From Alphaproteobacteria bacterium (GTDB lineage Bacteria; Pseudomonadota; Alphaproteobacteria; SHVP01), in NCBI GenBank assembly GCA_947473325.1, contig CANJEJ010000002.1, positions 29,359 to 93,358 on the forward strand: DNA of 64,000 bases. The letters are read 5' to 3'. Positions 20,119-48,384 of this stretch are shown piece after piece. The notes below the pieces were generated by a model. That model was not told the DNA's origin. It saw only the letters and a program-made list of their open reading frames with translations, and searched no databases. Position 1 is the stretch's first letter; each line of letters begins with the position of its first letter. The position numbers were made by a program, and so were the translations under genes.

Positions 20119-21267
20119 TCAGCCGATGGAGTCGTAAAGTGCGCGCACGAGCGCGACGCCGCGGGGGCCAAGGCCCGGCGTCACGCCGAACAGGCCGCCC
20201 ACATAGCCAAAGGACAGGCCGCTCTTCGGGTCGGTGAAGCCGATGCGGTGCCCGGCGCCCATATGGCCAAAGGCCTCCATGCTGGTGCCCATCGGGTGCT
20301 CGCCCGGTGTGTTGAGCTGGTAGCCGAGGGCAAAGCGGTTGTGGATGGCGAAGACCGGGTCGTCGCTTTCGATCTGGAAGCTGGTGGCCTTCTTCACCGT
20401 GTCCGCCTTCAGGATGCGCGTGCCGTCCAGCTCGCCGCCGTTGCCGAGCGCGGCGAAGAAGCGCGCGATGCCGCGTGCCGTGCCATGGCCAGAGCCCGCA
20501 CCCATCTGCGCCTTGCGGAAGGCTTCGGAATTGATGCGGTCACCGGATGCGCCGCCGCGGCTGGTCAGCGCCACGATCTCCGGCTGGCCGCGCGCCGGCG
20601 GCGGCGGATTGGGCATTGGCGCCATGACGAGATGCGCGCAGCGCGCGATCTGCGCGTCGGTCAGCGCGAAGTGGAAATCGGCATCCAGCGGGCCCGTCAC
20701 CCATTCGCGCACCAGCGGTGCGATCGTCTTGCCGGTGACGCGGCGCAGCACCTCGCCGATCAGGTAGCCGAAGGTCATGCTGTGGTAGACCGGCGTTTCG
20801 CCCACCGGGCCCACGGGCTTCTGTGCGGCGAGCGCGCGGGTGACCAGTTCCCAGTCATAGGCGTCGCCCGGCTTCAGGTCCGCGTCGATGTAGTAAAGCC
20901 CGGCCTGATGCGTGAAGAGCTGGCGGACAAGGATCTTGTCCTTGCCGTTCGCGCCGAATTCCGGCCAGTAGCGTGCAACGGGCGCGTCGAGGTCGAGCAG
21001 CCCGCGTTCCACCGCCATATGGCCGGCGGTCGCGGTGAAGGCCTTGGAGATCGAGAAGGCCGCCGCCATCGTGTCGCGCTGCCACGGCGCGCCGCTGCGC
21101 GGGTCGGCCACGCCGCCCCACAGGTCGATGATGGGCTTGCCATGCCGATAGACGGCGACCGCGGCGCCGTGCTCGTCCTGCTCCGTGAAGTTGCGGGCGA
21201 AGGCGTCCTTTACCTTGCCGAAGGCAGGATCGCAGCTGCCCTGAATCGTGATCGCAGGCGTTTCCAT
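20119..21267 (-). CDS. serine hydrolase, beta-lactamase/class-C esterase family
   Basis: ORF 20119..21345 trimmed to Met 27. SxSK (SISK) active-site motif, YxN-like and later HxG motifs. Confidence 0.8.
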   Translation of the reverse strand: METPAITIQGSCDPAFGKVKDAFARNFTEQDEHGAAVAVYRHGKPIIDLWGGVADPRSGAPWQRDTMAAAFSISKAFTATAGHMAVERGLLDLDAPVARYWPEFGANGKDKILVRQLFTHQAGLYYIDADLKPGDAYDWELVTRALAAQKPVGPVGETPVYHSMTFGYLIGEVLRRVTGKTIAPLVREWVTGPLDADFHFALTDAQIARCAHLVMAPMPNPPPPARGQPEIVALTSRGGASGDRINSEAFRKAQMGAGSGHGTARGIARFFAALGNGGELDGTRILKADTVKKATSFQIESDDPVFAIHNRFALGYQLNTPGEHPMGTSMEAFGHMGAGHRIGFTDPKSGLSFGYVGGLFGVTPGLGPRGVALVRALYDSIG

Positions 21268-21325
21268 GCCCTGTTGCTCCCTATCGCCTTTTGACGGAAC
21301 CTGACTCGCCTGAAAGGAGAAGTCC

Positions 21326-21748: not shown

Positions 21749-21763
21749 CGCCGGACGGACGAC

Positions 21764-22393: not shown

Positions 22394-23515
22394 ATGTCCG
22401 GCCAGACCCAGCACGCCATGTTGCCCGATGCGAGCCATGATGAAGGAGCGCGGCAGGAGTTTTCCGTCACGCTGGCCGGCCATGTCGCCCGCAATGTCCA
22501 GGGCGGCACCCGCAAGATTTATGACACCAAGGTGGAGCCCGCCTTCCGCCGCAAGCAGAACCGCAAGCCCAACCGGCTCGAGGTGCGCCGCGCCCTGCTG
22601 GAGGAGCCCTACTACCAGATGTGGTCGTCGCTGAAGCGCACCACGCAGGAAATCCTCTTCGATTCGGTGGGCGAAAGCGTGGAACGGCAGCTGCCGGCGC
22701 TGATCAAGCGGGCCAAGCCATCGGGCCGGCGCAAGGGGTCGCTCACGCTCGATCCCGCGGTGAAGGTGCCGACCTATCTGTCCGCCGTCGATATCCACTG
22801 CATGCCCGGCAACTATCACGGCGAGATCGCCGCCGATGACGTCTATGCGGGCGCGCTGTTCGACCGGGGCATCTATCTCTATGGCCTCGGTGGCCTCGGC
22901 CCCGACAATGACGACATGGGGCGCAGCATCTCGCACTGGCTGAAGCGCAACCATCCCGGGTTCAAGCCGAAGCGCATCCTCGACATGGGCTGCTCGGCCG
23001 GCACCAACACGGTGGCCTGGACGCGGACCTATCCGGGCGCTGCGGTGCATGCGATCGACGTGGCGGCGCCGATGTTGCGCTATGCCCATGCGCGCGCCGA
23101 GGCCTATGGCGCGCCGATCCATTTCAGCCAGCAGAATGCCGAGAAGACGAACTTCCCGTCCGGGCATTTCGATCTCGTCTATTCGCACATCCTGACGCAT
23201 GAGACGGCGACGACCGCCTATCACAACATCATCAGGGAATGCTTCCGCCTGCTGAAGCCGGGCGGGCTGATGATCCACCAGGAAACGCAGTGGGCGACGA
23301 AGGACGAACCCTTCAACCAGGCGACGCTCGACTGGGAAACCCACTACAACGCCGAGCCCTTCAAGACGAAGCTCGACACCCTCAACCTGCAGGCCATTGC
23401 CGAGCAGGCAGGATTCAAAGCGAAGAACGTGTTCTTCCAGACGGTGCCGAGCGAACAGGCCGGCACGAAATACTATCGCGGCCAGTGGAACCTGTTCGGG
23501 GCGTGGAAGAAGTAG
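22394..23515 (+). CDS. class I SAM-dependent methyltransferase with ~170-aa N-terminal extension (paralog 1 of 3)
   Basis: ORF 22280..23515 trimmed to Met 39. ILDMGCSAGTNT motif I. Shares VDIHCMPGNYH and IHFSQQNAEKT motifs with 23560..24702 and 35483..36625. Confidence 0.75.
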   Translation: MSGQTQHAMLPDASHDEGARQEFSVTLAGHVARNVQGGTRKIYDTKVEPAFRRKQNRKPNRLEVRRALLEEPYYQMWSSLKRTTQEILFDSVGESVERQLPALIKRAKPSGRRKGSLTLDPAVKVPTYLSAVDIHCMPGNYHGEIAADDVYAGALFDRGIYLYGLGGLGPDNDDMGRSISHWLKRNHPGFKPKRILDMGCSAGTNTVAWTRTYPGAAVHAIDVAAPMLRYAHARAEAYGAPIHFSQQNAEKTNFPSGHFDLVYSHILTHETATTAYHNIIRECFRLLKPGGLMIHQETQWATKDEPFNQATLDWETHYNAEPFKTKLDTLNLQAIAEQAGFKAKNVFFQTVPSEQAGTKYYRGQWNLFGAWKK

Positions 23516-23533
23516 CCGGTTCCTCCGGGCTCT

Positions 23534-23551
23534 CTCTCCCCTAGGGGAGAG
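23534..23551. terminator. palindrome TCTCTCCCCTAGGGGAGAG between convergent methyltransferase genes; possible bidirectional terminator
   Basis: Read directly. 9-bp arms centred on CTAG. No clear T-tract, so weak. Confidence 0.35.
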
Positions 23552-23559
23552 GGAGCTGC

Positions 23560-24702
23560 TTACTTCACCGCACCATTCACATAGAGCGAATCGGCATAGG
23601 TCTTCGGCGCCGGGCCGTTGTCAGAGATCGTCAGGTCCGCATTCATCGTCGCCAACATCGGCGTCTGCGGGAAGGACTTCGCCTTGGCGAAGCCGCTTTC
23701 CACCGCCACCGACTGCAGCTCCAGCTCATGCATCGTCGTCATGAAGGGTTCGGCGTTGAACTTGGTGCCCCAGCGGTGCCAGGCCGCGTCGAACTCGTCT
23801 TTCGCGTAATACTGGCGCGATTCACAATGCGCCATCACACCGCCGGGACGCAGCAGGCGCTTCGCCTCGCGGAATATGTTGCGCAGGGCCTTGCCTGACG
23901 TCTCGTGCAGGATGATCACCGACAGCACGAGGTCGAAATGCCCGTCAGGGAAGTCGGTCTTCTCGGCATTCTGCTGGCTGAAATGGATCGGCACCCCAGC
24001 TTCCTCGGCGCGCACATGGCCCCAGCGCAGGCAGGGGGCGGCGACGTCGATGGCATGCACCTCGGCATCCGGGAAGACCTGGGCGATGCCGAAGGTGGAA
24101 TGGCCCACGGTGCAGCCCATGTCGAGAATGCGCTTCGGCTTCAGGTCAGGGAAGTTGCGCCTGACGAATTCGGCGAGGCAGGTGCCGACCTCGTCGTTGT
24201 TCCTGCCCTTGTAGGCGTGGCTTGTGATTGTGCGGTCATAGAGCGCGCCGGCATAGACGTCGTCGTCCGTCAGCTCGGTGTGGTAGTTGCCCGGCATGCA
24301 GTGGATATCGACCGCCGTCAGGTAGGCTGGCGCAGCGACCGCCGGGTTCAGGCGCAGCGATCCCGTGGTCTTGCCACGCGCCGTCCGGCGCGCCGTCTCG
24401 ATCAGGTCGGGCAACTGGCGTTCGATGACGCCGCCGGCCACCTCATACATGTCTTCCTGGGCAATGCGGCGCAGCGCGCTGCGCATGGCATAGGGCGCTG
24501 TGCTTTCCCACAGCGTCTGCAGCTCCCAGCGATCCGGCGCGCGGCCGTACTTCTTCTCGAAGGCCGGTTTCGTCGTCCGGTCATAGACCTGCCGGTGCTG
24601 CACCATCAGCGGCCCGCTGACAAACTTGCGCAGCATGGCAGAGGCACTTTCGCGCGCCCTTTCATCATGGGTGGCTGAAAACAGCGGGGTAATGGCGGCC
24701 AT
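23560..24702 (-). CDS. class I SAM-dependent methyltransferase (paralog 2 of 3)
   Basis: ORF 23560..24831 trimmed to Met 44 (MAAITPLFSATHDE...). ILDMGCTVGHST motif and other conserved blocks shared with paralogs 1 and 3. Confidence 0.75.
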   Translation of the reverse strand: MAAITPLFSATHDERARESASAMLRKFVSGPLMVQHRQVYDRTTKPAFEKKYGRAPDRWELQTLWESTAPYAMRSALRRIAQEDMYEVAGGVIERQLPDLIETARRTARGKTTGSLRLNPAVAAPAYLTAVDIHCMPGNYHTELTDDDVYAGALYDRTITSHAYKGRNNDEVGTCLAEFVRRNFPDLKPKRILDMGCTVGHSTFGIAQVFPDAEVHAIDVAAPCLRWGHVRAEEAGVPIHFSQQNAEKTDFPDGHFDLVLSVIILHETSGKALRNIFREAKRLLRPGGVMAHCESRQYYAKDEFDAAWHRWGTKFNAEPFMTTMHELELQSVAVESGFAKAKSFPQTPMLATMNADLTISDNGPAPKTYADSLYVNGAVK

Positions 24703-24842
24703 GGCAAAACACCAGAATGATGTGGGGTATTGGTTCCCAGTATGGAACAAACGGGCGGCGGATTGAACCGCCTCGCAATCCTTTGCGCACGCGCCGCCGG
24801 TCGCTACCATGCCGGTCCATTCCCGCCGCACAAGGTTCTGCC

Positions 24843-25895
24843 ATGGCCGACGTTCACAAGCGCTACATTCTCGCCGCCTATCCCGACGGCATGCCCAAGG
24901 AAAGCGACTGGAAACTGGAAACCGGGCCCGTGCCCGTACCCGGCCCGGGCGAATTCCTGGTCCGCACGGTGTTCCTTGCGCCGGAACCGCGCCTGCGCCT
25001 GATGATGAACCCGACCAATGACAGCAACCGCGCCATGCGCCCCAATGGCGGCATGACCGACATCGGCAAGATCATGCCCTGCACCATCCTGGGCGAGGTC
25101 GTGCAATCCAACGACCCGGATTACAAGCCGGGCGACGTGGTCGAGGGCTTCCTCGGCTGGCAGAACTATGCCATCGCGACGCGAAAGGGCTTCAGCGCCA
25201 AGAACAACCCGAGCGGCATCGCCAAGATGGACCTGTCGCTTGGAACCCTGTCCTCCTTCGTCAGCGTGCTCGGCATTCCCGGCCTGACAGCCCACCTGGC
25301 GCTGCGCCATGAAGGCAAGGTGAAGCCCGGCGAGACGGTGGTGGTGACCAGCGCGGCCGGCACCGTCGGCTCGGTGGCGGCGCAGCTTGCCAAGCTGGCG
25401 GGCGCGCATGTCGTCGGCCTCACCTCGACGGATGAGAAATGCGAGCACCTGATCCAGGATCTCGGCCTCGACGTCGCGATCAACTACCGCAAGGAAAAGG
25501 ACCTCGCCGCCGCCATTCGCAAGGCCTGCCCGAAAGGCGTCGACTATTACTTCGACAATGTTGGCGGCGAGATGGCGGATGTGATCAAGGCGCAGCTCAA
25601 CCCGGGTGGCCGCGTCACCCGCTGCGGCATCGTCGCCAAATACAACAAGGACACCAGCCAGTGGCGGCAGTCCGACGAGTTCGCCGGCCAGTTCACCATC
25701 CATGACCATGTCGCGGAATATGACGGCGCGCGCAAGGAACTGTCGCAGCTCGTCAAGGCCGGCAAGCTGAAATATGCCGAGGAGATCTTCGACGGCTTCG
25801 AGAAGATTCCCAGGGTCTTCATCGACCTGCTCAACGGCAAGAACACCGGCAAGTTCCTCGTGCGCTGCGCGCCGGATCCCAAAGGCACGCGGTGA
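24843..25895 (+). CDS. NADP-dependent oxidoreductase, MDR family (alkenal/enone reductase, prostaglandin-reductase/CurA-like)
   Basis: ORF 24717..25895 trimmed to Met 43. AAGTVGS nucleotide-binding motif. Confidence 0.85.
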   Translation: MADVHKRYILAAYPDGMPKESDWKLETGPVPVPGPGEFLVRTVFLAPEPRLRLMMNPTNDSNRAMRPNGGMTDIGKIMPCTILGEVVQSNDPDYKPGDVVEGFLGWQNYAIATRKGFSAKNNPSGIAKMDLSLGTLSSFVSVLGIPGLTAHLALRHEGKVKPGETVVVTSAAGTVGSVAAQLAKLAGAHVVGLTSTDEKCEHLIQDLGLDVAINYRKEKDLAAAIRKACPKGVDYYFDNVGGEMADVIKAQLNPGGRVTRCGIVAKYNKDTSQWRQSDEFAGQFTIHDHVAEYDGARKELSQLVKAGKLKYAEEIFDGFEKIPRVFIDLLNGKNTGKFLVRCAPDPKGTR

Positions 25896-27958
25896 CCGAC
25901 GCACCGAAGCCCCCGCGCGCCGAAGCGCGGGCGGGGGAGGATCCCTATGCCTGGCTGCGCGATGAACAATGGCAGGCGGTGATCGCCGACCCGGCGAAGC
26001 TGTCGCCGGCGATCCGCGCCTATCTCGAAGCCGAGAATGCCTATACCGACCTGGTGCTGGCTCCGCTTGCCAGCCTGCGCACGGCGCTCGTCGCCGAGAT
26101 GCGGGCGCGCATCAAGGAAGACGATTCGACGGTGCCGGTGCCGGACGGGCCCTTTGCCTATTATTCGCGCCATGTGCCGGGCGGGCAGCATCCGATCTTC
26201 TGCCGCAGCCCGCGCAACGGCGGCGCGGAAACGGTGCTGCTGGACGGCAATGCCGCCGCCGCGGGCCTCGCCTATTTCCGCGTCGGTTCGCTGCAGCACA
26301 GCCCGGATCATCGCCGGCTCGCCTGGACGGTCGACACGGCGGGCTCGGAAATCTTCACGCTCTATGTGCGCGATCTCGACGGCGGGGCCCTGATCGGCAC
26401 GCCGGTGACGGGCGTGCATGGCGGCAGCGTTGCCTGGGCGAATGACAATGCCACGCTGTTCTACACCCGGCTTGATGCGCAGCACCGGCCGACCAAGGTG
26501 TTCCGCCACACGGCCGGCGCGCCGGACGCCGACGTTCTCGTCTACGAGGAAAAGGACGCCGCCTTTTATCTTGGCCTGGGCAAGACCGAGAGCGAAAAGT
26601 TCATCGTCATCGGCGCGTCGAGCCACGCCAACACGTCGGAATCCTGGCTGATCGATGCCGATGCGCCGCTGGCGCCGCCGCTGCTGGTGGAGCCTCGTGC
26701 CGACGGCATCGACTATGACGTCAGCCATCGCGACGACACGCTCTATATCCGGACCAACGCGGACGGGGCGGAGGACTACAAGATCGTGACCGCCCCCGTC
26801 GCCACGCCGGGCCGGGCACAATGGCGCAACCTTGTCGCCCATCGCGAGGGCGTTCTGATCCGCGGCCTCGAGCTTTATCGCGACTGGCTGGTGCGGTCGG
26901 AGCGGGCGGACGCGCTGCCGCGCATCGTCGTGCGCCAGCTTGAGACCGGTGCCGAGCACACGATTGCCTTCGACGAGGAGGCCTATGACCTGTCGTTACA
27001 CGGCGGCATGGAATTCGCGGGCGACACGCTGCGCTTCTCCTATTCCTCGATGGCGACGCCGTCCTCGGTCTTCGACTATGCGATGGCCAGCCGGACGCGC
27101 ACCCTGCGCAAGCGCCTGGAGGTGCCAAGCGGCCACAATCCGGATGACTATGTCGTTCGCCGCATCCAGGCGCCGGCGCGCGACGGCGAAGCCGTGCCGG
27201 TCAGCATCCTCTATCGCAAGGGAACGCCGCTCGACGGCTCGGCGCCGCTCCTGCTCTATGGCTATGGCTCCTACGGCATCAGCATCCCGCCGTCATTCTC
27301 GACCAACCGGCTCTCGCTGGTCGATCGCGGCATCGTCTATGCCATCGCCCATATCCGCGGCGGCATGGACAAGGGCTTCCGCTGGTATCGCGAAGGCAAG
27401 CTGACGAAGAAGCTCAACACCTTCCACGACTTCATCGACGCGGGCGAGGCGTTGGTGGCGCAGGGCTTCACCGCGCGCGGACGCATTGCCATCCATGGCG
27501 GCAGTGCGGGCGGGCTTCTCGTGGGCGCCAGCATCAACATGCGGCCCGACCTGTTCCGCGCCGCCGTCGCCGAGGTGCCCTTCGTCGACGTGCTCGCCAC
27601 CATCTCCGATGCGACACTGCCGCTGACGCCGCCGGAATGGTCGGAATGGGGCAATCCGCTGGAAGACGCGGCGGCGCGGGCGCTGATGGCCTCCTATTCG
27701 CCCTATGACAATGTGAAGGCGCAGGCCTATCCAGACCTGCTGGCGACGGCGGGCATTTCGGATCCGCGCGTGACCTATTGGGAGCCGGCGAAGTGGATCG
27801 CCAGGCTGCGCGCCCATGACACCGGCAATGCCACCATCCTGCTCAAGACCAACATGGGCGCGGGCCATGGCGGTGCCGCCGGCCGCTTCGACCGGCTGGA
27901 AGAGGTGGCGCTCACCTATGCCTTCATCCTGCGCGCATTCGAAAAGGCCATCGCATGA
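25892..27958 (+). CDS. S9-family serine peptidase (oligopeptidase B / prolyl oligopeptidase type)
   Basis: 688 aa. N-terminal beta-propeller, C-terminal GGSAGG nucleophile motif. GTG start overlapping the previous stop (GTGA). Confidence 0.85.
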   Translation: MTDAPKPPRAEARAGEDPYAWLRDEQWQAVIADPAKLSPAIRAYLEAENAYTDLVLAPLASLRTALVAEMRARIKEDDSTVPVPDGPFAYYSRHVPGGQHPIFCRSPRNGGAETVLLDGNAAAAGLAYFRVGSLQHSPDHRRLAWTVDTAGSEIFTLYVRDLDGGALIGTPVTGVHGGSVAWANDNATLFYTRLDAQHRPTKVFRHTAGAPDADVLVYEEKDAAFYLGLGKTESEKFIVIGASSHANTSESWLIDADAPLAPPLLVEPRADGIDYDVSHRDDTLYIRTNADGAEDYKIVTAPVATPGRAQWRNLVAHREGVLIRGLELYRDWLVRSERADALPRIVVRQLETGAEHTIAFDEEAYDLSLHGGMEFAGDTLRFSYSSMATPSSVFDYAMASRTRTLRKRLEVPSGHNPDDYVVRRIQAPARDGEAVPVSILYRKGTPLDGSAPLLLYGYGSYGISIPPSFSTNRLSLVDRGIVYAIAHIRGGMDKGFRWYREGKLTKKLNTFHDFIDAGEALVAQGFTARGRIAIHGGSAGGLLVGASINMRPDLFRAAVAEVPFVDVLATISDATLPLTPPEWSEWGNPLEDAAARALMASYSPYDNVKAQAYPDLLATAGISDPRVTYWEPAKWIARLRAHDTGNATILLKTNMGAGHGGAAGRFDRLEEVALTYAFILRAFEKAIA

Positions 27959-29289
27959 GCATCACGCAGACGCTTGCCGAAGAAGTGGTGGCGACTGCCT
28001 ATGACGGCGTGCCGGAAGCAGCGCGGCTGCAGGTCCGCCGCCTGATCGCCGACCAGGTGGGCGTCGCCTTCCTCGGCGCCCGGCTGACGGGTGCTGCCTA
28101 TGAGGGCTACGCCCGGGCGCTCGGCGGCACGCCGAATGCCGTGCTCATGGGCTCGGGCGTGCGCGTGCCGGCCGAGCTCGCTGCCGGCATCAACGCCCAG
28201 GTCTGCCGCAACACGGACTACGAGGAAACAGGACCCGGCCTTCACGCCGGTCCGGTCGTTGCCATGACGGCGCTGGCGGTGGGCGAGCGGGTCGGCGCCA
28301 GCGGGCGCGACATCGTTGCCGCGGCGGCCCTGGGCTATGAGCTCAACGCGCGCTTCTTCTTCGCGCGCCGCGACGGCGATATCCGCCATCTCGGTGTCAC
28401 GGCCGCCGCCATCTCGGCGCGCCTTCTCGGCCTCGACGCATCGGCAACCAACCGGGTGCTCGGTCTTGCCTGGGAGCTGCCGTCGAAGTCGGTTGTCTAC
28501 CAGGTGCCGAAGACGCCGAAGCGGGTCAGCCGTCTCGGCATGGCCAATGTTGTTTCGGCGCGTCAGGGAGTTCAGGCGGCGATGCTGGTGCAGCAGGGCT
28601 TCGATGCGCTGCCTGACGAGCTTGATACGTTGGCAGACCAGTACGACCTTGCCGCGCTGACTCATTCGCCCGCGCCATACCAGCACACGGCAACGCAACT
28701 GATGCTGAAGCCCTGGCCGGCCAGCCGGCTGTGCCATGGCGCTATCCAGTTGGGCCAGCGGATGATGGCGGAACACGCGCTGAAACCCGAGCAGATTGAA
28801 CGGGTGGTGCTCGGCCTTGCGGACATTTACCTGATGCCGCACCAGAACGACCCGGCGCCGGAGGACTACTGGCAGGCGATCTATTCCGTGCAATGGAACC
28901 TGGCCATGGCGCTGCTCGGCGTGCCGCCCGGCCCGGCCTGGTCCGATGCAACGCGGTTGCGCGATCCCGCGGCCCGCGCGCTCGCCGCCCGCGTCGAGCT
29001 CATGGAAGACCCGGAAGCCACGCGGGTGATGCGCACGCTGCGCTGGCTCGACCTGCCCAACAGCATCGAACTGCATGCCGCTGGCCGTGTCTTCCGCGAC
29101 CGGATTCTGTTTCACGATGTCTTGGGCAGCCCGGATACGCCAATGCCGCCGGCAATGTTCGACGGCAAGTTTCTCGGACTGGTCACACCCGCGCTGGGGG
29201 CCGGACGGGCGGCACAACTGCTCGCGGCGCTGCATGCGATCGAGGAAGTCGAGGATATCCGCACCATCACCCAGCTGATGGTTGAGTAG
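27955..29289 (+). CDS. MmgE/PrpD-family protein (2-methylcitrate dehydratase superfamily)
   Basis: 444 aa with MmgE/PrpD fold signatures. ATGA overlap with the upstream peptidase. Confidence 0.8.
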   Translation: MSITQTLAEEVVATAYDGVPEAARLQVRRLIADQVGVAFLGARLTGAAYEGYARALGGTPNAVLMGSGVRVPAELAAGINAQVCRNTDYEETGPGLHAGPVVAMTALAVGERVGASGRDIVAAAALGYELNARFFFARRDGDIRHLGVTAAAISARLLGLDASATNRVLGLAWELPSKSVVYQVPKTPKRVSRLGMANVVSARQGVQAAMLVQQGFDALPDELDTLADQYDLAALTHSPAPYQHTATQLMLKPWPASRLCHGAIQLGQRMMAEHALKPEQIERVVLGLADIYLMPHQNDPAPEDYWQAIYSVQWNLAMALLGVPPGPAWSDATRLRDPAARALAARVELMEDPEATRVMRTLRWLDLPNSIELHAAGRVFRDRILFHDVLGSPDTPMPPAMFDGKFLGLVTPALGAGRAAQLLAALHAIEEVEDIRTITQLMVE

Positions 29290-29302
29290 CCGGGGAAGCA
29301 GC

Positions 29303-29686
29303 GTGACGAAGAATTTCGCCTATTGGAGCGACGATCCGCCGATGGTGCGGAAACTCGTCGGCTTGACGCGGGAAGGGCGCAAGCTCGCAACCGTGCGGCC
29401 AGCGTCGTCCTGGCTGGCGCCGATCACGCAATGGGATGACGTTCCCTACACGGAGGGCGAGGAGGCGGTGCTGCGCGACCTCGACGGCACGGCGCATCTA
29501 CGCGTCCGCTTCACCGACATCTACGGGACGACGCTTAACACCATCCCCGAGAAGCTGTGGCGCGACGAGTTCGAGCCAAGCGCGGAGGAGTTCCGCCGCG
29601 TCCACCACGTCGCCTGGGATCCGCTCGGCATCACCGGAGATACCCCGCTGATGGCGATCCACTTCGAGGTTCTCGGGCCCGCCTGA
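29303..29686 (+). CDS. hypothetical small protein (possible ASCH-like domain), GTG start
   Basis: ORF 29282..29686 with GTG at 29303 after a GGGGAAG SD, immediately downstream of the PrpD stop. Domain assignment is weak. Confidence 0.4.
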   Translation: MTKNFAYWSDDPPMVRKLVGLTREGRKLATVRPASSWLAPITQWDDVPYTEGEEAVLRDLDGTAHLRVRFTDIYGTTLNTIPEKLWRDEFEPSAEEFRRVHHVAWDPLGITGDTPLMAIHFEVLGPA

Positions 29687-29687
29687 G

Positions 29688-30152
29688 CTATTCCGACACC
29701 GGAACGGCGCGGCTGGTGAAGGCGATGGACTGGCTGCCGCGCACCGACACATTGACCGATTCGACCAGCGGCGGGCTGACCGGCTGGTCGGATTCCCAGC
29801 CGACCAGGAAATTGGCGCCCGAGCCGCCCCTGGTGTCGCGCACTTCGACGAAATATTCGACCGTCGCCATGGGCGGGATCATGCGCGCGGCTGGTTGGTG
29901 GTTGCGCAGCAGCTTGCCGTCGGTGTCGTAGTAGCGCGCGAAGAGCAGGCGCAGGGGATAGGCGGGGTCGGTGTTGCGCACGCTCACCACCGCCGACAGC
30001 AGAACCTGGTCTGGTGTGCCATTGCCCGACAGGTTGCCGTGCGGCAGGTGCGAATAGACCGGGACATAGAGCGTCTCGCCGCTCTTGCGCTCCTGCGCCA
30101 GCGCCGCGATGGCGGCGAGGATGAGCGCGATGGCGAGCAGGCCGCGCTTCAT
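29688..30152 (-). CDS. secreted protein of unknown function (DUF3124-like)
   Basis: 154 aa. Signal peptide (MKRGLLAIALILAAIAALA). YVPVYSH motif. Confidence 0.55.
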   Translation of the reverse strand: MKRGLLAIALILAAIAALAQERKSGETLYVPVYSHLPHGNLSGNGTPDQVLLSAVVSVRNTDPAYPLRLLFARYYDTDGKLLRNHQPAARMIPPMATVEYFVEVRDTRGGSGANFLVGWESDQPVSPPLVESVNVSVRGSQSIAFTSRAVPVSE

Positions 30153-30979
30153 TGCGCTTTCCCGTCGAGCCAGGCGGCGATGGCGCGGCCCTTGGCTTCC
30201 TGCGAATCGTCGCCATGCGGCAGCGCCAGCAGTGTCGCGCCGGGAATCACCGCCGCCGTCGGCGCCATGTCGGCGAACACCTCGAGGTCGGGCTGGTACA
30301 GCACGGCGGTTGGCACCTTCAGCTGTGCAACGCGCTCTTCGCGCGGCCAGGACATGGCCGCGCCGTAGGAGCGGTTGAAGGTGGCGGCCGAGGTCAGGAG
30401 TTCGACCGTCATGTCATGCATGCGTTCCGGCGAAGGCTGGCTGAACTTTCGCCGATGCGCCGCGTCGCGCGACCACCAGGGATAGAAGATGAAATGGTCG
30501 TGCATGACCTGCCAGGCCCAGCGGAACTGGCTGCCGATCGCATCGGGCTTGGGTGGCGGCTCGCCGCTGCTGCCGGTGGCGCGTGCCGGGCCTGGCACCG
30601 CGAGCTCGTCAATGATCAGGTGCCGGACGCGGTCGGGTGCGGTGAGTGCCAGCTCCGTGGCAATCATTGAGCCGGTGCGCACGCCATACAGGTCGCAGTC
30701 GGCAATGCCCATCGTGTCGAGCAGGCGGCGCAGCGCGTCGGCGAAATAGGCGATGCCGGGGTTCTCGATGCCCGGCGCGCAGGATGATCCGTTGCCCAGC
30801 GTGTCGGGCGCGATGACAGGCCGCGTCTTGCCCAGTTCCTCGACCAGTGGCAGCAGGAAGCCACTTGCCACGGGCGACATGTGGATGGCGATCAGCGGGC
30901 GCCGGGCGGGCGAACCCACGGTGCGGCGCAGGTGGACCTGGCCCTCGGCGATGCGGACAAATTCGCGGTCGATATGCAT
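30149..30979 (-). CDS. alpha/beta-hydrolase-fold protein with non-canonical nucleophile motif (G-V-R-T-G-S), family member 1
   Basis: 276 aa. HxxP oxyanion region (IAIHMSP), GQVHLRR N-terminal motif. Arg at the nucleophile-elbow position. Confidence 0.65.
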   Translation of the reverse strand: MHIDREFVRIAEGQVHLRRTVGSPARRPLIAIHMSPVASGFLLPLVEELGKTRPVIAPDTLGNGSSCAPGIENPGIAYFADALRRLLDTMGIADCDLYGVRTGSMIATELALTAPDRVRHLIIDELAVPGPARATGSSGEPPPKPDAIGSQFRWAWQVMHDHFIFYPWWSRDAAHRRKFSQPSPERMHDMTVELLTSAATFNRSYGAAMSWPREERVAQLKVPTAVLYQPDLEVFADMAPTAAVIPGATLLALPHGDDSQEAKGRAIAAWLDGKAQ

Positions 30980-31061
30980 GGCCCAAGTTTCGCACGGCCG
31001 GGTGGACGCCGTCGCGTCCTTTAGGTCATGGTTGCAGCCATAGTTTCAAAAGGGGTCGTTG

Positions 31062-32468
31062 ATGGACTGGGACGTAATCGTGGTCGGCGCCGGTACGGCG
31101 GGCATGCCGCTCGCCATCTTTGCGGCGAAGCGGGGCGCCCGCGTGCTGGTGCTGGAACAGGCCGCCACCATCGGCGGCACGCTGCCGGTCTCGGCCGGGC
31201 AGGTCAGCGCCGCCGGAACGCGGCTGCAGGCCGAACGCGGCATCGTCGATTCGCCCGACATCCACTATGCCGACGTGGTCCGCATCTCCAATGGCAACAC
31301 CACGCATGCCTTCGCGCGCCTTGCCGCCGACAATTCTGCCGACACACTGCACTGGCTGCTCGATCTCGGCTGGACGCCAATGGCGGAACATCCCGTCAAG
31401 TTCGGACACAACCCCTATTCCGTGCCGCGCACCTATTGGGGCGTGAATGCGGGTCATGACCTGATGGCGGCGGTGGAGCCCGAATTCCGGCGCGCCATCG
31501 CAACCGGCCATGTGACCTTGCGCGTCAGCACCCCGGTGATCGACCTCATCCAGAACGAAGACGGCACAGTCACCGGCGTGGTGGCGCGCGAAGCCGGCAA
31601 GGCCGAAGAACGCATCACCGCGCCCAATGTCGTGCTCGCCACCGGCGGCTATGGCGCCAGCAAGGCGCTGTTCCCGCTGTTTACCAACGGCCTGCCCGGC
31701 TTTGGCTGGGCCAACCCCACCTCCAACGGCAGCGGCCATGTGCTGGCGCTGAAGGCCGGCGGCCAGGTGAAGCGGCAGGACTTCTTCCTGCCGCGCTGGG
31801 CCGGTGTGGAAAACCCGCACGATCCCGCCCGTGCCGAACGCTACACGGAAATGGCGCCGGCACGCCGCCTGCCCTGGGAAATCTGCGTCGATCGCAGGGG
31901 CCGCCGCTTCGTCGCGGAAGACCGTATCAGCCCGGACGAACGCGAGCGTGCGCTCCTCACCGTGCCGGACCTGACCTTCTGGGTGGTCTATGACGCGCGC
32001 ATCCGGCGCGAAGCGCCGCCGCTGTTCGACAGGCCGCCGGAACCCGGCCTCGACCACTGGCTTGGCCGGCATCCCGCCTATTGCGTGGGCGATACGCTCG
32101 ACGCCGTGGCGAGGGCTGCGGGCATCGATCCAGCCGGTCTCGCGCAGACGGTGGCCGACTACAACGGCTCGGTGAAAACCGGCAAGGACGCATTTGGGCG
32201 GACGCACATGCCGCTGCCGATCGCTGAAGGCCCGTTCTACGCCATCAAGCACCATGGCGCGGGCGCGACGACGATTCCCGGCATCGAGGTGGACACGGAC
32301 ATGCGCGTGCTGCGCGCCGATGGCTCGGCTGTTCCCGGGCTCTATGCCGCCGGCGAGATCCTCGGCATGGGCCTGCACTCGGGCGACGCCTTTGTCGGCG
32401 GCATGGGGTTGATGCCGGCGCTCACCTATGGCCGGCTGCTCGGAGAACGCCTGTTGAACTGGCGCTAA
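31062..32468 (+). CDS. FAD-dependent oxidoreductase (fumarate-reductase / 3-ketosteroid-dehydrogenase-like flavoprotein)
   Basis: N-terminal DVIVVGAGTAG dinucleotide-binding motif. C-terminal motif typical of the FRD/SDH flavoprotein family. ATG at 31062 chosen over TTG at 31059. Confidence 0.8.
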   Translation: MDWDVIVVGAGTAGMPLAIFAAKRGARVLVLEQAATIGGTLPVSAGQVSAAGTRLQAERGIVDSPDIHYADVVRISNGNTTHAFARLAADNSADTLHWLLDLGWTPMAEHPVKFGHNPYSVPRTYWGVNAGHDLMAAVEPEFRRAIATGHVTLRVSTPVIDLIQNEDGTVTGVVAREAGKAEERITAPNVVLATGGYGASKALFPLFTNGLPGFGWANPTSNGSGHVLALKAGGQVKRQDFFLPRWAGVENPHDPARAERYTEMAPARRLPWEICVDRRGRRFVAEDRISPDERERALLTVPDLTFWVVYDARIRREAPPLFDRPPEPGLDHWLGRHPAYCVGDTLDAVARAAGIDPAGLAQTVADYNGSVKTGKDAFGRTHMPLPIAEGPFYAIKHHGAGATTIPGIEVDTDMRVLRADGSAVPGLYAAGEILGMGLHSGDAFVGGMGLMPALTYGRLLGERLLNWR

Positions 32469-33706
32469 GCCGCCGCCCGCTTCCGCATTTCGGCGCGCAG
32501 CGGGATCAGCAGAAGGAACAGGAAGGCCGCGACGCCGACCAGGAAACTGAGCGCAGCGTCGAAACCGCCGGTCACGTCCGCCAGCCAGCCGATGGACAGC
32601 GGGCCCAGCACGCCGCCGATCTCGGCCGCCGAGAAGAAGAGCCCGCCGGCAGCACCCATGTGGCGCGGATCGACGCCACGGGTTTCCATCAGGATCAGCA
32701 TGGCGATGGTCATCATGGTCTGGCGCGTGGCGCCCTGCAGGAACAGGCCGCCGAACAGCGCCGGCTCTGCCGAGCTGTGCAGCAGGAAGGCCGAGAAGCC
32801 GGCCGCGATATAGAGCACCGCCAGGATCCAGAGCCGGCGGGACGGGATAGCCAGCCGCGGAATCGTCAGCGCGGAAGCAATGCCGACAAGCACCGGCACG
32901 GACGCCCAGAAGCCGGCACGCGCCGCGCTCATGCCGTGGTCCTGCAGGATCGCGGGCAGCCAGTTGTTCAGGCCATGGCTGAAGAAAAAGGAACCCAGCC
33001 CGGTGAGGAGCAGAATCTGTACCGCGCGCATCTTCAGCAGGGCGAGAAAGACGCTGAGCTGTGGCGTCTTGGGTGCGGCGGCTTCGTGCCTTTCGCGCGC
33101 GCGGACTTCCTGGTGCGAAGCAATGACCCACCACAGCCCGCCCGCGGCGAAGATGACCAGCGCATAGGTCAGCATCACCAGATGCCAGTCATTGTCGAAC
33201 AGCGGCATGAGCACGGCGTAGGTCAGCGACAGGGACAGCATGCCGCCGACCGAAGGTCCGCTCATGTAGATGCCCATGGCAAAGCCGCGTTCCTTGCCGC
33301 CGAACCACTGGGCGATCAGCTTGGGGGCGCCGATCGACACTAGCGGCGCGCCGAAGCCGAACACCGCCACCGCGAAGAACAGCATCGCATAGTCATAGGA
33401 TACGGCGCGCAGCAGCCCCGACACGCCCATCACGGCGGCGCAGAGCAGCAGGCCCCGGCGCAGGCCGATACGGTCAAGAAGAGCGCCGAGCGGGATCGCG
33501 GTGACGACATAGACGAGTGGCCAGGCGCCCAGGATGCTGCCCATCGCCGCCTGGCTGAGCCCCAGTTCGGCGATGATCAGCTTGACGAGCGGGGCCATCG
33601 CCGAAGACAGCAGGCCGAAGGAGCCGTAGATGACCCACACGCCCGCCAGCATCGCCCAGCGATGCGGATGGAGCAGGGCGGGCGCGGCCGGTGCGGCGCT
33701 GGTCAT
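32465..33706 (-). CDS. MFS transporter
   Basis: 413 aa, 12 predicted TM helices, MFS signature between TM2 and TM3. Confidence 0.85.
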   Translation of the reverse strand: MTSAAPAAPALLHPHRWAMLAGVWVIYGSFGLLSSAMAPLVKLIIAELGLSQAAMGSILGAWPLVYVVTAIPLGALLDRIGLRRGLLLCAAVMGVSGLLRAVSYDYAMLFFAVAVFGFGAPLVSIGAPKLIAQWFGGKERGFAMGIYMSGPSVGGMLSLSLTYAVLMPLFDNDWHLVMLTYALVIFAAGGLWWVIASHQEVRARERHEAAAPKTPQLSVFLALLKMRAVQILLLTGLGSFFFSHGLNNWLPAILQDHGMSAARAGFWASVPVLVGIASALTIPRLAIPSRRLWILAVLYIAAGFSAFLLHSSAEPALFGGLFLQGATRQTMMTIAMLILMETRGVDPRHMGAAGGLFFSAAEIGGVLGPLSIGWLADVTGGFDAALSFLVGVAAFLFLLLIPLRAEMRKRAAA

Positions 33707-33765
33707 GAGCTCACGGGGAAAATCGGCCCGGCGTGCGCCGGGCCGTCAGGAAACGGAAAATTCGA

Positions 33766-34593
33766 TCAGGCGAGTTCGTGCCCGACGCAGAGCAGTTCGG
33801 CACCGATCTCCGACGCCGCGCCAGCTTCGAAGCCCAGGGCGGCAGGGCCGGTCCACTCCACCCAGCCCCCTTCCTTCAGGTCAAAGCGCGTGCCGGATTT
33901 GGCATCGGCCGTCGGGTAAACCCAGACCGGCGCGTCGCCATGCAGCCCATAGATCCAGCGCCGCACCGGCTGAACATCGCCCCGCTTCATGCCGGCTTCC
34001 GGCTGCCAGCCGGGCGGAATATGCACGATGACGACGGGGTGATAGCCGGGCACGGGCGACTTGCCGCCGATAGACAGGCGCTTGATCTTCCAGCCCTTGA
34101 CGCGCGGATGCGGCTCCCAGGGCAGCTTTTCCGTGTCACCAACATGGGCAGGATTGTAGTCGGTGCCCAATGCGGCGAGGTCGCCTTCGAAGGGGATGTA
34201 GTTGAAGGACAAGGGCCCGGTGCCCCATTCCAGCAGGAAGCAGCCCAGCGTGGTGACCGGGTCGATCGACATGCCATGGATGCTGCGTGGCGGCCGGTCG
34301 AGCAGCTGGCCTTCCTTGAAGTTGATCGGCCTGCCCTTGGTCATCGTCGGGCCGTCATATTCCACATAAGGCACGTTGCCGAACATGATGTAGACGAACT
34401 CGCGCGTCGGGCCGTGATGGTGCCGCGTGTGCTTCGGCATCTTGAAGCCGGTCGGCACGAAGGCAACCTTCAGGTTCTCGCCGGTCTCCTTGTTCTCGAT
34501 CAGTGTCTTGGCATAGGTGCCGGGATATTGCGGGTGCCACGGCTCCCACGGCATGGCCTTGGTATCAACGAAACGAAACGGCTCGGCGCCCAT
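33766..34593 (-). CDS. bicupin-domain protein of unknown function (paralog of 16048..16866)
   Basis: 275 aa. Shares MPW, LEWGTGP and LLCVGHELA motifs with 16048..16866. Confidence 0.6.
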   Translation of the reverse strand: MGAEPFRFVDTKAMPWEPWHPQYPGTYAKTLIENKETGENLKVAFVPTGFKMPKHTRHHHGPTREFVYIMFGNVPYVEYDGPTMTKGRPINFKEGQLLDRPPRSIHGMSIDPVTTLGCFLLEWGTGPLSFNYIPFEGDLAALGTDYNPAHVGDTEKLPWEPHPRVKGWKIKRLSIGGKSPVPGYHPVVIVHIPPGWQPEAGMKRGDVQPVRRWIYGLHGDAPVWVYPTADAKSGTRFDLKEGGWVEWTGPAALGFEAGAASEIGAELLCVGHELA

Positions 34594-34668
34594 CTGTCAC
34601 TCCCCGTGCTTTTCTTACTCTGTGTATACATGGACTGTAGGGAGCGGCCGGGGCGGGGGTCAACTGCT

Positions 34669-35412
34669 TCAACTGCCGCTGGCGGGCTGGGTCATGCCAT
34701 AGGGCTTGGCCGCCGTCTGCTGGGTGACAATCGGGAGCGTGCTGCCGTCGGGTTCGAAGAACTTGCCGGTGTCGGCGAGCGTCAGGCGGTCGATCACGCC
34801 CCACAGCAGGCCGGCGCTTTCGTCGGCGGTCAGGGCACCGGTGTTGCCGGTCGCCCGCGTCGCCACCCAGCCGGGATGGGCGCAGGCGCAGATGATGCCG
34901 CGCGGGCGCAGCGCCAGCGCGCATTGATAGACGACCTGCGTCTGCGCCGACTTGCTCGAGCGCGATTCGATATGGCCGAAGGCGGGCGTCGGGCCGACGC
35001 GGCTGGCGATGAAAAACATGGTCTTCCGTTGGCTTGCAGCGACATGGTCGGCGAAGCGTTCGGCCAGGCGCATGGGCGCCATCGAGTTGACGCGGAAATG
35101 CTCGGCCCAGCTTTCGTAGTCGGTTTCACCGAACGGGTTGGCCCTGGCCCAGGTGACGGCGCCATTGCTCAGCAGCACGTCGATCGGTGTGCCGGCGAGG
35201 CTCGCGGCGATGCCGTCGATGGCGGCGAAGTCACCCAGGTCGAGGCGGTGCAGGCTCAGCTTTCCCGCCGATGATCCCGCCAGGGCCTGCAAATCCGAGG
35301 CCTTGTCCGGGTCGCGGGCCGTGGCCAGCACGCGATGGCCCAGCGCCAGCGCCTTTCTGGTCAGGCCAAGCCCCAGGCCGCGATTGGCCCCTGTAATCAA
35401 CACGGTGGACAT
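34669..35412 (-). CDS. SDR-family oxidoreductase (C-signal/CsgA-like subgroup)
   Basis: 247 aa. TGANRGLG Rossmann motif. Confidence 0.8.
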   Translation of the reverse strand: MSTVLITGANRGLGLGLTRKALALGHRVLATARDPDKASDLQALAGSSAGKLSLHRLDLGDFAAIDGIAASLAGTPIDVLLSNGAVTWARANPFGETDYESWAEHFRVNSMAPMRLAERFADHVAASQRKTMFFIASRVGPTPAFGHIESRSSKSAQTQVVYQCALALRPRGIICACAHPGWVATRATGNTGALTADESAGLLWGVIDRLTLADTGKFFEPDGSTLPIVTQQTAAKPYGMTQPASGS

Positions 35413-35482
35413 TGGCTCTCCCTTGGTTCGCGTTAGCCAGTCAGACTAGACTGGCGCTCCTCCCCTTGCGCCCGAGGTTGCC

Positions 35483-36625
35483 ATGCCTGTCCATGCCACG
35501 CATCCCATGTTTCCCGACGCCAACCATGACGAGCAGGCGCGGCAGGATTTCATCCGCCTCTTCAAGCTGTCGGTGCAGCGCGACATCGGCACCGGCAACA
35601 AGCGGCTCTACGAGGCCAAGGTGAAGCCCGACTTCGCCCGCCGCACCGGCCGCGCGCCGAAGTCGCGGCGCGAGGTGCGCCAGGCGATGCAGGCGGAACC
35701 CTATACCCAGATGTGGAGCGCGCTGCTGCGCACCTCGCAGGAAATGCTCTACGACACGGTCGGGCCGTCGATCGAACGCCAGTTGCCCGACCTCATCAGC
35801 AAGGCGAAAGCCTATGGCGACCGCCACGGCACGCTGTCGCTCGATCCGTCGGTGGCCGTGCCGCCCTACCACGCCGCGGTCAACATTCACTGCAAGCCAG
35901 GCGGCTACCACACCGAGCTGACGCAGGACGACCTGTTCGCCGGCGCCGAATATGACCGCACCGTGCACATGTACCTGATGGGCGCGATGGGACCGAACAA
36001 CGACGACCTCGGCCGTTCCGCCGCGCTATGGGTGAAGCAGCAGTATCCGCACCTGAAGGTACGCAAGGTCCTCGACATGGGTTGCACCATCGGCCATTCG
36101 ACGCTGGCCTGGTGCGACGTGTTCCCGGACGCCGAGATTCACGCCATCGACGTCGCCGCGCCCTGTCTGCGCTATGCCCATGCCCGGGCCGAGGCGATGG
36201 GCAAGCCCGCGCATTTCCACCAGATGAACGCCGAGAAGACGGCATTCGAAGCGGGCAGCTTCGATGTCGTCGTCTCGCACCTGATGATGCACGAAACCTC
36301 GTCCCAGGCGCTGCCGCGAATCTTCAAGGAGTGCCACCGCCTGCTGAAGCCGGGCGGCGTGATGCTGCATGTCGATGCGCGCAACGTGACGGGCGAGCCT
36401 TTCGACCAGTATCAGCAGGAATGGGACGCGCATTACAACAACGAGCCCTTCTTCGGCACGCTGCATGACACCGACCTGCAAAAGCTGTCGCGCGACGCGG
36501 GCTTCGCCAGGGAGAAGGTCTTCGAGCTCTGGATCCCGTCGCATTACAAGCCGCGATCCGGGACCGAACATCACATCAACGCGGCGATGAAGGGCGATTA
36601 CTTCATGTCGGGCGCGCAGAAGTAA
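35483..36625 (+). CDS. class I SAM-dependent methyltransferase (paralog 3 of 3)
   Basis: 380 aa. VLDMGCTIGHST motif. Same conserved blocks as 22394..23515 and 23560..24702. Confidence 0.75.
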   Translation: MPVHATHPMFPDANHDEQARQDFIRLFKLSVQRDIGTGNKRLYEAKVKPDFARRTGRAPKSRREVRQAMQAEPYTQMWSALLRTSQEMLYDTVGPSIERQLPDLISKAKAYGDRHGTLSLDPSVAVPPYHAAVNIHCKPGGYHTELTQDDLFAGAEYDRTVHMYLMGAMGPNNDDLGRSAALWVKQQYPHLKVRKVLDMGCTIGHSTLAWCDVFPDAEIHAIDVAAPCLRYAHARAEAMGKPAHFHQMNAEKTAFEAGSFDVVVSHLMMHETSSQALPRIFKECHRLLKPGGVMLHVDARNVTGEPFDQYQQEWDAHYNNEPFFGTLHDTDLQKLSRDAGFAREKVFELWIPSHYKPRSGTEHHINAAMKGDYFMSGAQK

Positions 36626-37515: not shown

Positions 37516-37523
37516 AGGATGCC

Positions 37524-44201: not shown

Positions 44202-44296
44202 CAGGTCGCAGCTCGCTCCCGATGTAACCCGGAACGAGGCGTTCGCCGCTGTAAGCCTTATGTAACAATGGCACAGGGGCTTTGGTGGGGCACCGC

Positions 44297-46567: not shown

Positions 46568-46573
46568 CGCCGG

Positions 46574-48112: not shown

Positions 48113-48384
48113 CTCCGACGTCCAGGATGTGCGTCAGATCACGCGGCGGAAATTTTTATCCCCGTGGGGTCACTTTTCTATTGCATGGGGGGGCAACAGG
48201 TCTTATTTCGCGAACCTGTCGGACGTCACGGATCGTGGCTTCCGGCGTCGGCGGGTGAAGAGCCCGCTCCTAGGACCCGGCCCATCCTTCGATTTGGGAC
48301 CGGCACACTTGAAAACGGTGGTCACTCCGTTCAGTGGCCAGTTTTGGTGCGTCGTGTCCCGGCGCGTATCTGGAGGATGAAGGA

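Follow-up and report, generated by a model that had tools for sequence, protein, structure and literature searches.

Three ancient methyltransferase paralogs with a family-specific N-terminal module in an alphaproteobacterial contig, and a candidate partner protein of their relatives

Why does an alphaproteobacterial contig carry three related methyltransferase genes within 14 kb, two of them tail-to-tail, and what kind of chemistry might their products serve? The genes lie in a 64,000-nucleotide stretch of contig CANJEJ010000002.1 (assembly GCA_947473325.1, positions 29,359 to 93,358; the whole stretch is hereafter called the window) and were designated MT1 (22394..23515, + strand, 373 aa), MT2 (23560..24702, − strand, 380 aa) and MT3 (35483..36625, + strand, 380 aa). 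They are ancient, diverged paralogs, each with its own orthologs, and belong to an uncharacterised family in which a generic class I methyltransferase core follows a family-specific N-terminal module. Elsewhere the norm for this family is a single copy next to the gene of a small protein, here called c1, whereas the lineage of the window is multi-copy without an adjacent c1.

All three open reading frames (ORFs) are intact, at the coordinates and on the strands given by a first-pass annotation made from the sequence alone. Their exact sequences recur as called genes in public assemblies (among them the 156,696-bp metagenome scaffold on which they lie, ENA ERZ28612979, MEHR18-2_SAMN08331103 scaffold_678), so that independent gene callers have picked the same starts. 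The proteins align from end to end with pairwise identities of 47-50%, distributed unevenly: the Rossmann core is the best conserved (57-63%), ahead of residues 1-190 (41-51%) and the C-terminal lid (26-35%). A hidden Markov model (HMM) of the family scores MT1, MT2 and MT3 at 561, 493 and 663 bits, respectively (E 1e-148 to 1e-200), well past chance; run over all ORFs of the 64-kb window, it found no fourth member. MT2 is the most divergent of the three and nonetheless retains all family-invariant residues.

Pfam recognises only generic class I methyltransferase domains in these proteins, from residue ~190-196 to ~300. Methyltransf_25 scores 72-76 bits (cut-off 27; E-values 4.5e-21 in MT1, at residues 195-291, 5e-20 in MT2 and 4.3e-21 in MT3) and Methyltransf_11 62-67 bits (cut-off 21.2), and Methyltransf_31, _12 and _23 likewise exceed their gathering cut-offs in all three. 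The first ~190 residues have no match in Pfam, NCBIfam or the PDB. The canonical helix preceding strand β1 ('AGA.YDR') starts at about residue 150, which sets the truly family-specific N-terminal extension at ~145 residues; the first-pass figure of about 170 residues was a fair description. The profile search proposed there, run with residues 1-190 against 1.84 billion representative proteins, gave 679 matches, 117 of them with E-values of 1e-30 or better. In the 150 matches listed, the module forms the N-terminus of proteins of ~360-415 aa or is found in shorter, fragment-like sequences, and this single architecture marks it as a family-specific module and not a mobile domain.

An AlphaFold2 model of MT3 built with 45 homologs (predicted local distance difference test score, pLDDT, 88; predicted template-modelling score 0.88) has four N-terminal helices (15-35, 37-55, 62-69 and 73-111), followed by an extended segment with an invariant loop at 127-151, partly of low confidence. 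The remainder, made up of the canonical pre-β1 helices, the sheet of the Rossmann fold and an inserted helical segment (306-339), shows the seven-stranded α/β fold of class I methyltransferases. For the N-terminal module itself, Foldseek found no counterpart among solved structures (TMq at most 0.45).

The conservation pattern, drawn from 45-92 family members, extends through both parts of the protein. Invariant or near-invariant blocks of the N-terminal part are HDE (15-17), RTSQEMM (83-89), ERQLP (98-102) and the long stretch P.Y..AVDIHC.PGGYH.E..DD..AGA.YDR (127-159). Those of the core are ILDMGC[TS]xGHST (196-207), AIDVAAP.LRYAHARAE, HFSQQNAE and SH...HETS (265-273), with RLL.PGG..H.E (286-298) and DW...NNEPF (313-323) further on. 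The motifs first read off the three genes were confirmed with small deviations, MT3 reading VNIHCKPGGYH and AHFHQMNAEKT and MT2 LLRPGG. Positions that bind S-adenosylmethionine (SAM) are preserved, namely the glycine-rich motif I, Asp223 after β2 and QQNAE. The A2 profile together with the table of motifs finds the full N-terminal-cap architecture in MT1-MT3, with GTNT in place of GHST in the MT1 lineage.

In class I methyltransferases the acceptor pocket is lined by residues after motif I, after β4 and β5 and in the lid between β5 and β6. From this geometry His205, His270-Glu271, His296, Trp314, Asn319 and Glu321 would share one pocket, and the same pocket may also take in His136, Cys137, His143, Tyr129 and Tyr142 of the N-terminal loop and several invariant arginines. 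In the profile alignment His270 faces the histidine of the 'ILH' motif of phosphoethanolamine methyltransferases, which is a lead and not a test. In those enzymes this histidine is the catalytic base.

Assignment to a known family was tried and failed, as Pfam and NCBIfam yield generic methyltransferase domains or sub-cut-off matches only. The first-pass annotation had named a housekeeping methyltransferase family as the finding that would overturn its view, and nothing of the kind emerged: every NCBIfam equivalog stays 3-10 times below its cut-off, with partial matches restricted to the core. MT1-MT3 reach 36-44 bits with MenG/UbiE (TIGR01934, cut-off 158), 48-55 with BioC (TIGR02072, cut-off 185), 49-62 with the corrinoid-protein-associated methyltransferase CpaM (NF043040, cut-off 180) and 29-38 with UbiG (cut-off 103). 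UbiE/MenG and BioC are the names given by automatic annotation. The likeness consists of the Methyltransf_11-type core and a partial match to Pfam Ubie_methyltran above the gathering cut-off (37-44 bits against 20.1). Both enzymes lack the N-terminal module, their scores are 3-4 times too low and the genomic contexts of the family are unrelated to quinone or biotin synthesis; Pfam annotation of the neighbours revealed no bio genes near MT1-MT3.

Against PDB sequences the family profile is best matched by phosphoethanolamine N-methyltransferases (6e-17), in the core only (positions 190-313). The nearest solved cores are the plant and nematode enzymes of this type (5wp5, 4kri), LahSB (6uak) and RebM (3bus), followed by TmtA (5egp) and Coq5 (4obw), all of the generic class I Methyltransf_11/25 type. 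With such enzymes the family shares the seven-stranded Rossmann core, SAM motifs I-III, the histidine after β4 and the helical lid between β5 and β6. It differs from them in the ~145 extra N-terminal residues with their four helices and HC.PGGYH loop, in the form of motif I (GC[TS]xGHST) and in sequence, identity to any characterised enzyme being at most 23%.

The three genes are not recent duplicates. In a neighbour-joining tree of 92 family members MT1, MT2 and MT3 fall into three separate deep branches, and their DNA is 67-71% identical over the central parts only; recent duplication or gene conversion was rejected on these grounds. Orthologs of MT3 with 72-77% identity exist in three metagenome-assembled genomes (MAGs; loci L001-L003), MT2 has a series of orthologs at 92, 82, 74 and 56-62% identity, exceeding the ~50% that separates the paralogs, and a 67% identical ortholog of MT1 is encoded in the Lake Tanganyika MAG VGES01 (L087:9099-10217). 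The convergent MT1/MT2 pair is itself kept in L086 and L087, from related lake Alphaproteobacteria MAGs (SRR7990526 and VGES01), flanked on one side by genes for an ADH_N_2 oxidoreductase, an S9 peptidase and MmgE/PrpD and on the other by one for a CBS protein. In the MT1 lineage GCSAGTNT replaces GC[TS]xGHST after SAM motif I (window 22994-23017, MT1 residues ~201-208). As the 67% identical VGES01 ortholog also reads GTNT, this is a fixed feature of the lineage and not decay, and the change suggests an altered acceptor pocket. The first-pass impression of an uncharacterised and diversified small-molecule family is supported, the diversification by separate deep branches and own ortholog lineages.

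A protein 74% identical to MT2 is encoded on scaffold_20492 (L084:8001-9140) from the same metagenome sample as the window. It stands between genes for MgtE and an acyl-CoA dehydrogenase, with no MT1-type gene adjoining, and either marks one more paralog lineage or comes from another organism of that sample.

Scanning a single genome for each GTDB species confirmed at least 580 loci of the family; the locus counts given here and below rest on the best 80. These come from lake and sea Alphaproteobacteria MAGs, Binatia, sphingomonads, many Gammaproteobacteria MAGs (sponge symbionts included) and the cyanobacteria Nostoc, Tolypothrix and Chroococcidiopsis. Nearly all assemblies of Binatia, Gammaproteobacteria and cyanobacteria contribute one locus each; a Granulosicoccaceae locus (L024) has two methyltransferases, with c1 beside each. 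The copy number among relatives of the window's organism, which the first-pass annotation had proposed to count, is much higher. Per-genome numbers being lower bounds, VGES01 has at least five core and two distant copies (L001, L005, L006 and L087), JAYOEZ01 at least five copies, and JAQBYN01, CAYGKG01 and CAXNFA01 at least three each. Culturable carriers include Sphingorhabdus sp. 109 or Parasphingorhabdus NYA22 (two copies) and, with c1, Nostoc sp. UHCC 0252 or Scytonema.

A distant subfamily of methyltransferases (L006:11912-14939, L007:10854-12065) scores 150-180 bits with the family HMM, is 20-35% identical and carries the motifs DFHQHPGG and MLHE[LI][AP]P; in two proteobacterial MAGs its genes lie tail-to-tail with a core methyltransferase gene or adjoin it. 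The distant gene in L006 also adjoins a weak c1-like ORF (60 bits), by which relatives of the window's organism carry a c1-like gene tied to a different paralog.

The family's usual state, a single copy with c1, had been overlooked in the first-pass annotation, c1 not being in the window. The c1 family emerged from clustering all ORFs of the best 80 loci. Its HMM detects it in 55 of them (Binatia, Gammaproteobacteria, Myxococcota, Spirochaetales, Anaerolineaceae and cyanobacteria), nearly always 0-150 bp from the methyltransferase gene, mostly directly downstream on the same strand and occasionally upstream or divergent; examples are L010:11168-11500 (+ strand), L017:4245-4592, L070:11132-11425 and L079:11224-11511. 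The protein has ~95-130 aa (~110 typically), the consensus ..KGKRPVFFDDPEIDKLLAIVMALAGEVSVLRERLDTVERL...WRAEFLERVLRIV and the invariant pattern G..P....P...AGEV..R.D..E...R..WR..Y..R.LR, and is modelled as a two-helix hairpin (helices 16-48 and 64-94, pLDDT 82). All of its 965 homologs are named hypothetical, and searches of Pfam, NCBIfam and the PDB gave no match. Weak similarities to PspB (E 0.033) and to an antiterminator (E 0.28) were taken as noise, and an origin as a detached piece of the methyltransferase was rejected (hhalign probability 1.5%).

The 25 loci without c1 are nearly all from Alphaproteobacteria MAGs or sphingomonads, that is, from the multi-copy genomes, and in the window the c1 HMM found nothing in six frames of 64 kb, the search being confined to the window. 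Conserved motifs are identical between c1-carrying and c1-less groups, which makes c1 more likely an accessory subunit or regulator than a methyl acceptor. The nearest known parallel to c1 is a small activator of methyltransferases such as Trm112, which serves Mtq2, Trm9, Trm11 and Bud23 and occurs in the Hvo_0019-Trm112 pair (6f5z). Unlike Trm112, c1 is predicted to fold entirely into a helical hairpin, lacks a zinc-knuckle and matches no known protein in sequence; it is a candidate partner by gene adjacency.

The neighbourhoods in other phyla have a catabolic flavour. In Binatia and many Gammaproteobacteria the gene order is methyltransferase-c1-HyuA-HyuB (L010:11583-15541, and likewise L044, L031, L040, L056, L080 and L011), and HyuA/HyuB stand beside the methyltransferase in about 23-25 of the 80 loci, in these two groups. 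The Hyu proteins are caprolactamase- or N-methylhydantoinase-like, below equivalog cut-offs; neither Hydantoinase_A nor Hydantoinase_B was found among the window genes scanned. Neighbours that recur across phyla are a family III CoA-transferase, a GlcD-like FAD_binding_4 oxidase, short-chain dehydrogenases/reductases (SDRs) and an Asp/Glu-racemase-like protein, together with TonB-dependent, MFS and SBP5 transport proteins. The CoA-transferase and the FAD oxidase often share a cluster with HyuA/HyuB, a gene set without a described pathway. A search of the accessible literature found no paper on six accession numbers of family members or on methyltransferase and hydantoinase together, be it in Binatia or with a family III CoA-transferase. 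A link to scytonemin was considered for the cyanobacterial loci and dropped: the TrpB-like gene beside the methyltransferase is single (two of three loci), with no scy/trp cluster.

Two neighbours of MT1 in the window are possibly linked to the family. A GlcD-like FAD_binding_4 oxidase (18477..20081, − strand; cluster c19) belongs to a subfamily that is encoded within 6 kb of family methyltransferases in L004, L035, L056, L066, L073, L075 and L080 (42-47% identity). The second is a beta-lactamase-fold, family VIII esterase-like protein (20119..21270, − strand; Pfam Beta-lactamase 2.5e-70), whose best NCBIfam match is a partial one to LipL esterase, below cut-off. It is 46.5% identical to a neighbour in the gammaproteobacterial locus L004 and has a counterpart near the methyltransferases in L086 and L087.

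MT3 likely heads a co-directional run that continues with an aldo-keto reductase (AKR; 36688-37515, + strand), a 568-aa tandem double α/β-hydrolase-fold protein (37500-39206, + strand) and a further AKR. Genes of clusters c56 and c25, to the latter of which the double hydrolase belongs, adjoin the MT3 orthologs in L001-L003, and L001 has three copies of c25. Upstream of MT3 lie a divergent SDR gene and then a cupin gene, and the block cupin-SDR-methyltransferase-AKR-double hydrolase is syntenic in L001-L003. Synteny with L003, L086 and L087 is longer still and covers at least nine genes, with that of the S9 peptidase at one end and that of the double hydrolase at the other, which indicates that much of the local arrangement reflects common descent and not a compact operon for one product. 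Overall the neighbours in the window are oxidoreductases, esterase-fold and α/β-fold proteins, a peptidase, MmgE/PrpD, transporters and regulators.

Taking these data together, we propose that MT1-MT3 are uncharacterised class I methyltransferases with a cap domain, that their substrates are small and probably polar or anionic metabolites, and that variable cap and lid residues set the substrate; we put the probability of this reading at roughly 55%. The four-helix module of the first ~145 residues, which leads into the invariant loop P.Y..AVDIHC.PGGYH.E..DD, would be followed by a Rossmann core that binds SAM through GC[TS]xG, the acidic residue in AIDVAAP and QQNAE, and by a helical lid between strands 5 and 6 (DW...NNEPF). 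Module and lid would close over the SAM site as a gate. His136/Cys137/His143, His205, His270-Glu271, His296, Arg83/99/159/235 and Tyr129/142 may then hold a small polar, probably anionic metabolite and take a proton from it, the metabolite being methylated next on N, O or S. Catalytic and SAM residues would be common to all paralogs, and substrate choice would reside in the variable residues of cap and lid. In most lineages the protein would act as a single-copy enzyme together with its co-transcribed partner c1 of ~110 aa, often near an ATP-dependent HyuA/HyuB lactamase or carboxylase, a family III CoA-transferase and an FAD-linked oxidase. Among the aquatic Alphaproteobacteria of the window's lineage, where no partner adjoins it, the enzyme would have risen to five copies or more, set among genes of catabolism, redox metabolism and transport. 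This multi-copy state is consistent with a broadened substrate range in small-molecule processing and not with a biosynthetic cluster.

The data show the paralogy, the domain architecture and fold, the pattern of conservation, the gene contexts and the phyletic distribution; SAM-dependent methyl transfer, gating by the cap, a small anionic substrate and a catabolic role are predicted. Several points weigh against this proposal. Methyl transfer is a prediction, as no member of the family has been studied, and a catabolic role is unusual for a methyltransferase. Motif I has the form GC[TS]xG, a GxxxG variant, and not GxGxG. That the invariant residues lie near the SAM site is deduced solely from the positions of canonical motifs, and the 131-140 loop, part of the putative active site, is modelled with low confidence (block pLDDT 54). 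The absence of c1 holds for 64 kb, and the gene could lie elsewhere in the window's genome. Synteny with relatives at the level of the genome, not functional linkage, explains much of the window context, and recurrence of window neighbours across classes is limited to the FAD oxidase (eight loci) and the esterase (one independent locus).

If the cap-domain proposal is right, thousands of entries now named 'class I SAM-dependent methyltransferase' or 'UbiE' would form a distinct family that caps its substrates with a domain of its own and, in most lineages, has a small protein as its dedicated partner; neither the methyltransferase family nor c1 has a Pfam or NCBIfam model or a solved structure. 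Its members are frequent in uncultured lineages that matter ecologically, namely Binatia, Gammaproteobacteria of the sea and of sponges, Alphaproteobacteria of lakes and seas, and heterocystous cyanobacteria, and the methyl acceptor could then point to a metabolite conversion in aquatic carbon cycling that has so far gone unrecognised. Comparison of single-copy, c1-linked genomes with multi-copy ones that have no adjacent c1 offers a natural experimental handle. New here are the definition of the N-terminal module, the discovery of the widespread c1 and the contrast of the two genomic states. For the window itself the result is more modest: three correctly called, intact and ancient paralogs that do not make up a biosynthetic cluster.

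A bolder extension, which we regard as speculative and rather unlikely, is that the methyltransferase, c1, HyuA/HyuB, CoA-transferase III and the GlcD-like FAD oxidase mark an undescribed pathway that processes an abundant dissolved organic compound, with SAM-dependent methylation as one step. The substrate could be, for example, of the lactam, hydantoin, hydroxy-acid or carboxy-acid type. Methylation might be a transient masking as methyl ester or N-methyl group, later taken off by the neighbouring esterase-fold proteins. Freshwater and marine Alphaproteobacteria would have dropped the partner and multiplied the enzyme to at least five paralogs with a wider substrate range.

The proteins could instead be S-methyltransferases in the manner of MddH, TmtA or ArsM, detoxifying H2S, methanethiol, xenobiotic thiols or metalloids, with the paralogs dividing the thiols among them. 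The invariant Cys137 and several invariant histidines could bind soft substrates or a metal, and family members are found widely among bacteria of waters and sediments. MddH is comparable as a class I methyltransferase annotated as UbiE, with a small-molecule substrate and a wide distribution in aquatic Alpha- and Gammaproteobacteria (PMC11445057). It is, however, a compact 24-kDa H2S/methanethiol S-methyltransferase, 37% identical to E. coli UbiE and described as being without the long helical N-terminal region that TMT1A/B have (PMC11445057), whereas the window proteins are of 42 kDa, possess a ~190-aa N-terminal region and match UbiE models weakly. Identity with MddH was rejected on architecture, from the published description (PMC11445057). 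With the cysteine triad of ArsM absent from the family proteins and no sulfur or arsenic genes in the neighbourhoods, we consider S-methylation of this kind unlikely.

The first-pass annotation had favoured a small-molecule tailoring family. Read as tailoring within a secondary-metabolite or small-molecule biosynthetic cluster, this would have the methyltransferases, a bicupin, reductases and hydrolase-fold proteins all modify a common scaffold. The genes do stand among reductases (SDR, AKR, ADH_N_2), a cupin and α/β-fold proteins, and the cupin-SDR-MT3-AKR-double hydrolase block survives rearrangement in L001. Nevertheless, the idea is not supported and has a low probability. The scan of genes across 64 kb detected no polyketide synthase, non-ribosomal peptide synthetase or terpene synthase and no precursor or maturase of ribosomally synthesised and post-translationally modified peptides. 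The methyltransferases form two blocks, set apart by genes for a peptidase, MmgE/PrpD, an MFS transporter and DUF3124. Much of their co-location is long-range synteny, since L003, L086 and L087 share this extended order of genes, a sign of an inherited chromosomal arrangement, and the neighbours in other phyla (HyuA/HyuB, CoA-transferase, transporters) are of a catabolic type.

Of similarly low probability is a macromolecular acceptor, be it c1, another protein or RNA, with the N-terminal module serving for docking or oligomerisation. The tight, probably translationally coupled pairing with c1 (55 of the 80 loci), the invariant basic N-terminus KGKRP of c1 and the presence of protein lysine and N-terminal methyltransferases among the structural neighbours speak for it. 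Yet paralogs without c1 keep all invariant pocket residues, so that c1 is hardly the acceptor, the family adjoins metabolic enzymes and transporters and not ribosomal or regulatory genes, and the closest cores are those of small-molecule methyltransferases.

More doubtful again is a SAM-fold protein that transfers no methyl group, such as a decarboxylase, cyclase or hydroxylase (CmoA, SpnF, RdmB-like) or a binding protein. The departure of motif I from the canonical form and a catabolic context odd for a methyltransferase would fit this, but the near-invariance of the ribose-binding D223, of QQNAE in the adenine region and of the pre-β1 YDR helix is the pattern of SAM-using enzymes, and such exceptions are rare among class I proteins. 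Finally, the notion that one copy is a housekeeping ortholog (UbiE/MenG, UbiG, BioC or Tam) and the others recent duplicates, to which the JGI auto-annotation of homologs as 'UbiE' or 'benzoquinol methylase' and the Ubie_methyltran match lend some colour, is effectively refuted by equivalog scores far under cut-offs, by matches that span a ~100-150-residue core only in families without the ~190-aa N-terminal region, and by separate ortholog lineages of paralogs that have kept half or less of their residues in common.

Some features of the window deserve mention in their own right. The stop codons of the convergent MT1 and MT2, the tail-to-tail pair of the first-pass annotation, are separated by a spacer of 44 nt (23516..23559) that holds a GC-rich palindrome, CTCTCTCTCCCC TA GGGGAGAGGGAG (~23530-23555), without a T-tract. 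On either strand the spacer RNA is predicted to fold stably into a hairpin (−30.6 and −25.2 kcal/mol, z −3.66 and −2.76), and the palindrome is probably a bidirectional transcript-end hairpin. A terminator and promoter scan, which did not call this hairpin, found no T-tract terminators or sigma-70-like promoters around MT1 and MT2, and the window has no Rfam or tRNA matches.

The hydrolase-fold proteins at 37500-39206 (+ strand) and 30149-30979 (− strand) are atypical: at the expected site of the nucleophile elbow they read G-N-H-T-G-S, G-F-H-T-G-S and G-V-R-T-G-S, with neither Ser nor Asp nor Cys at the position of the nucleophile. Comparison of L087:10812-14578 with window 21326-22195 revealed an indel of ~3.8 kb in a region where synteny is otherwise preserved. 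In VGES01/SRR7990526 genes for a LigD-Ku fusion, a TPR protein and a cytochrome b-like protein separate the CBS gene from the glyoxalase and beta-lactamase-fold genes, which are adjacent to it in the window.

Further downstream, at 40560-41288, lies the gene of a LuxR-type autoinducer-binding regulator, next to which no LuxI is encoded. The window then encodes a pentapeptide-repeat protein of 373 aa (41779-42900), a member of the penicillin-amidase family and possible acyl-homoserine lactone acylase (44255-46567), a bacterial GH3-family adenylating enzyme (46568-48112) and a SAM decarboxylase (48313-48780). They are followed by a trio of amine oxidase, DUF1365 protein and cyclopropane-fatty-acid-synthase-like methyltransferase (48884-52390), the last of which belongs to another family, unrelated to MT1-MT3.

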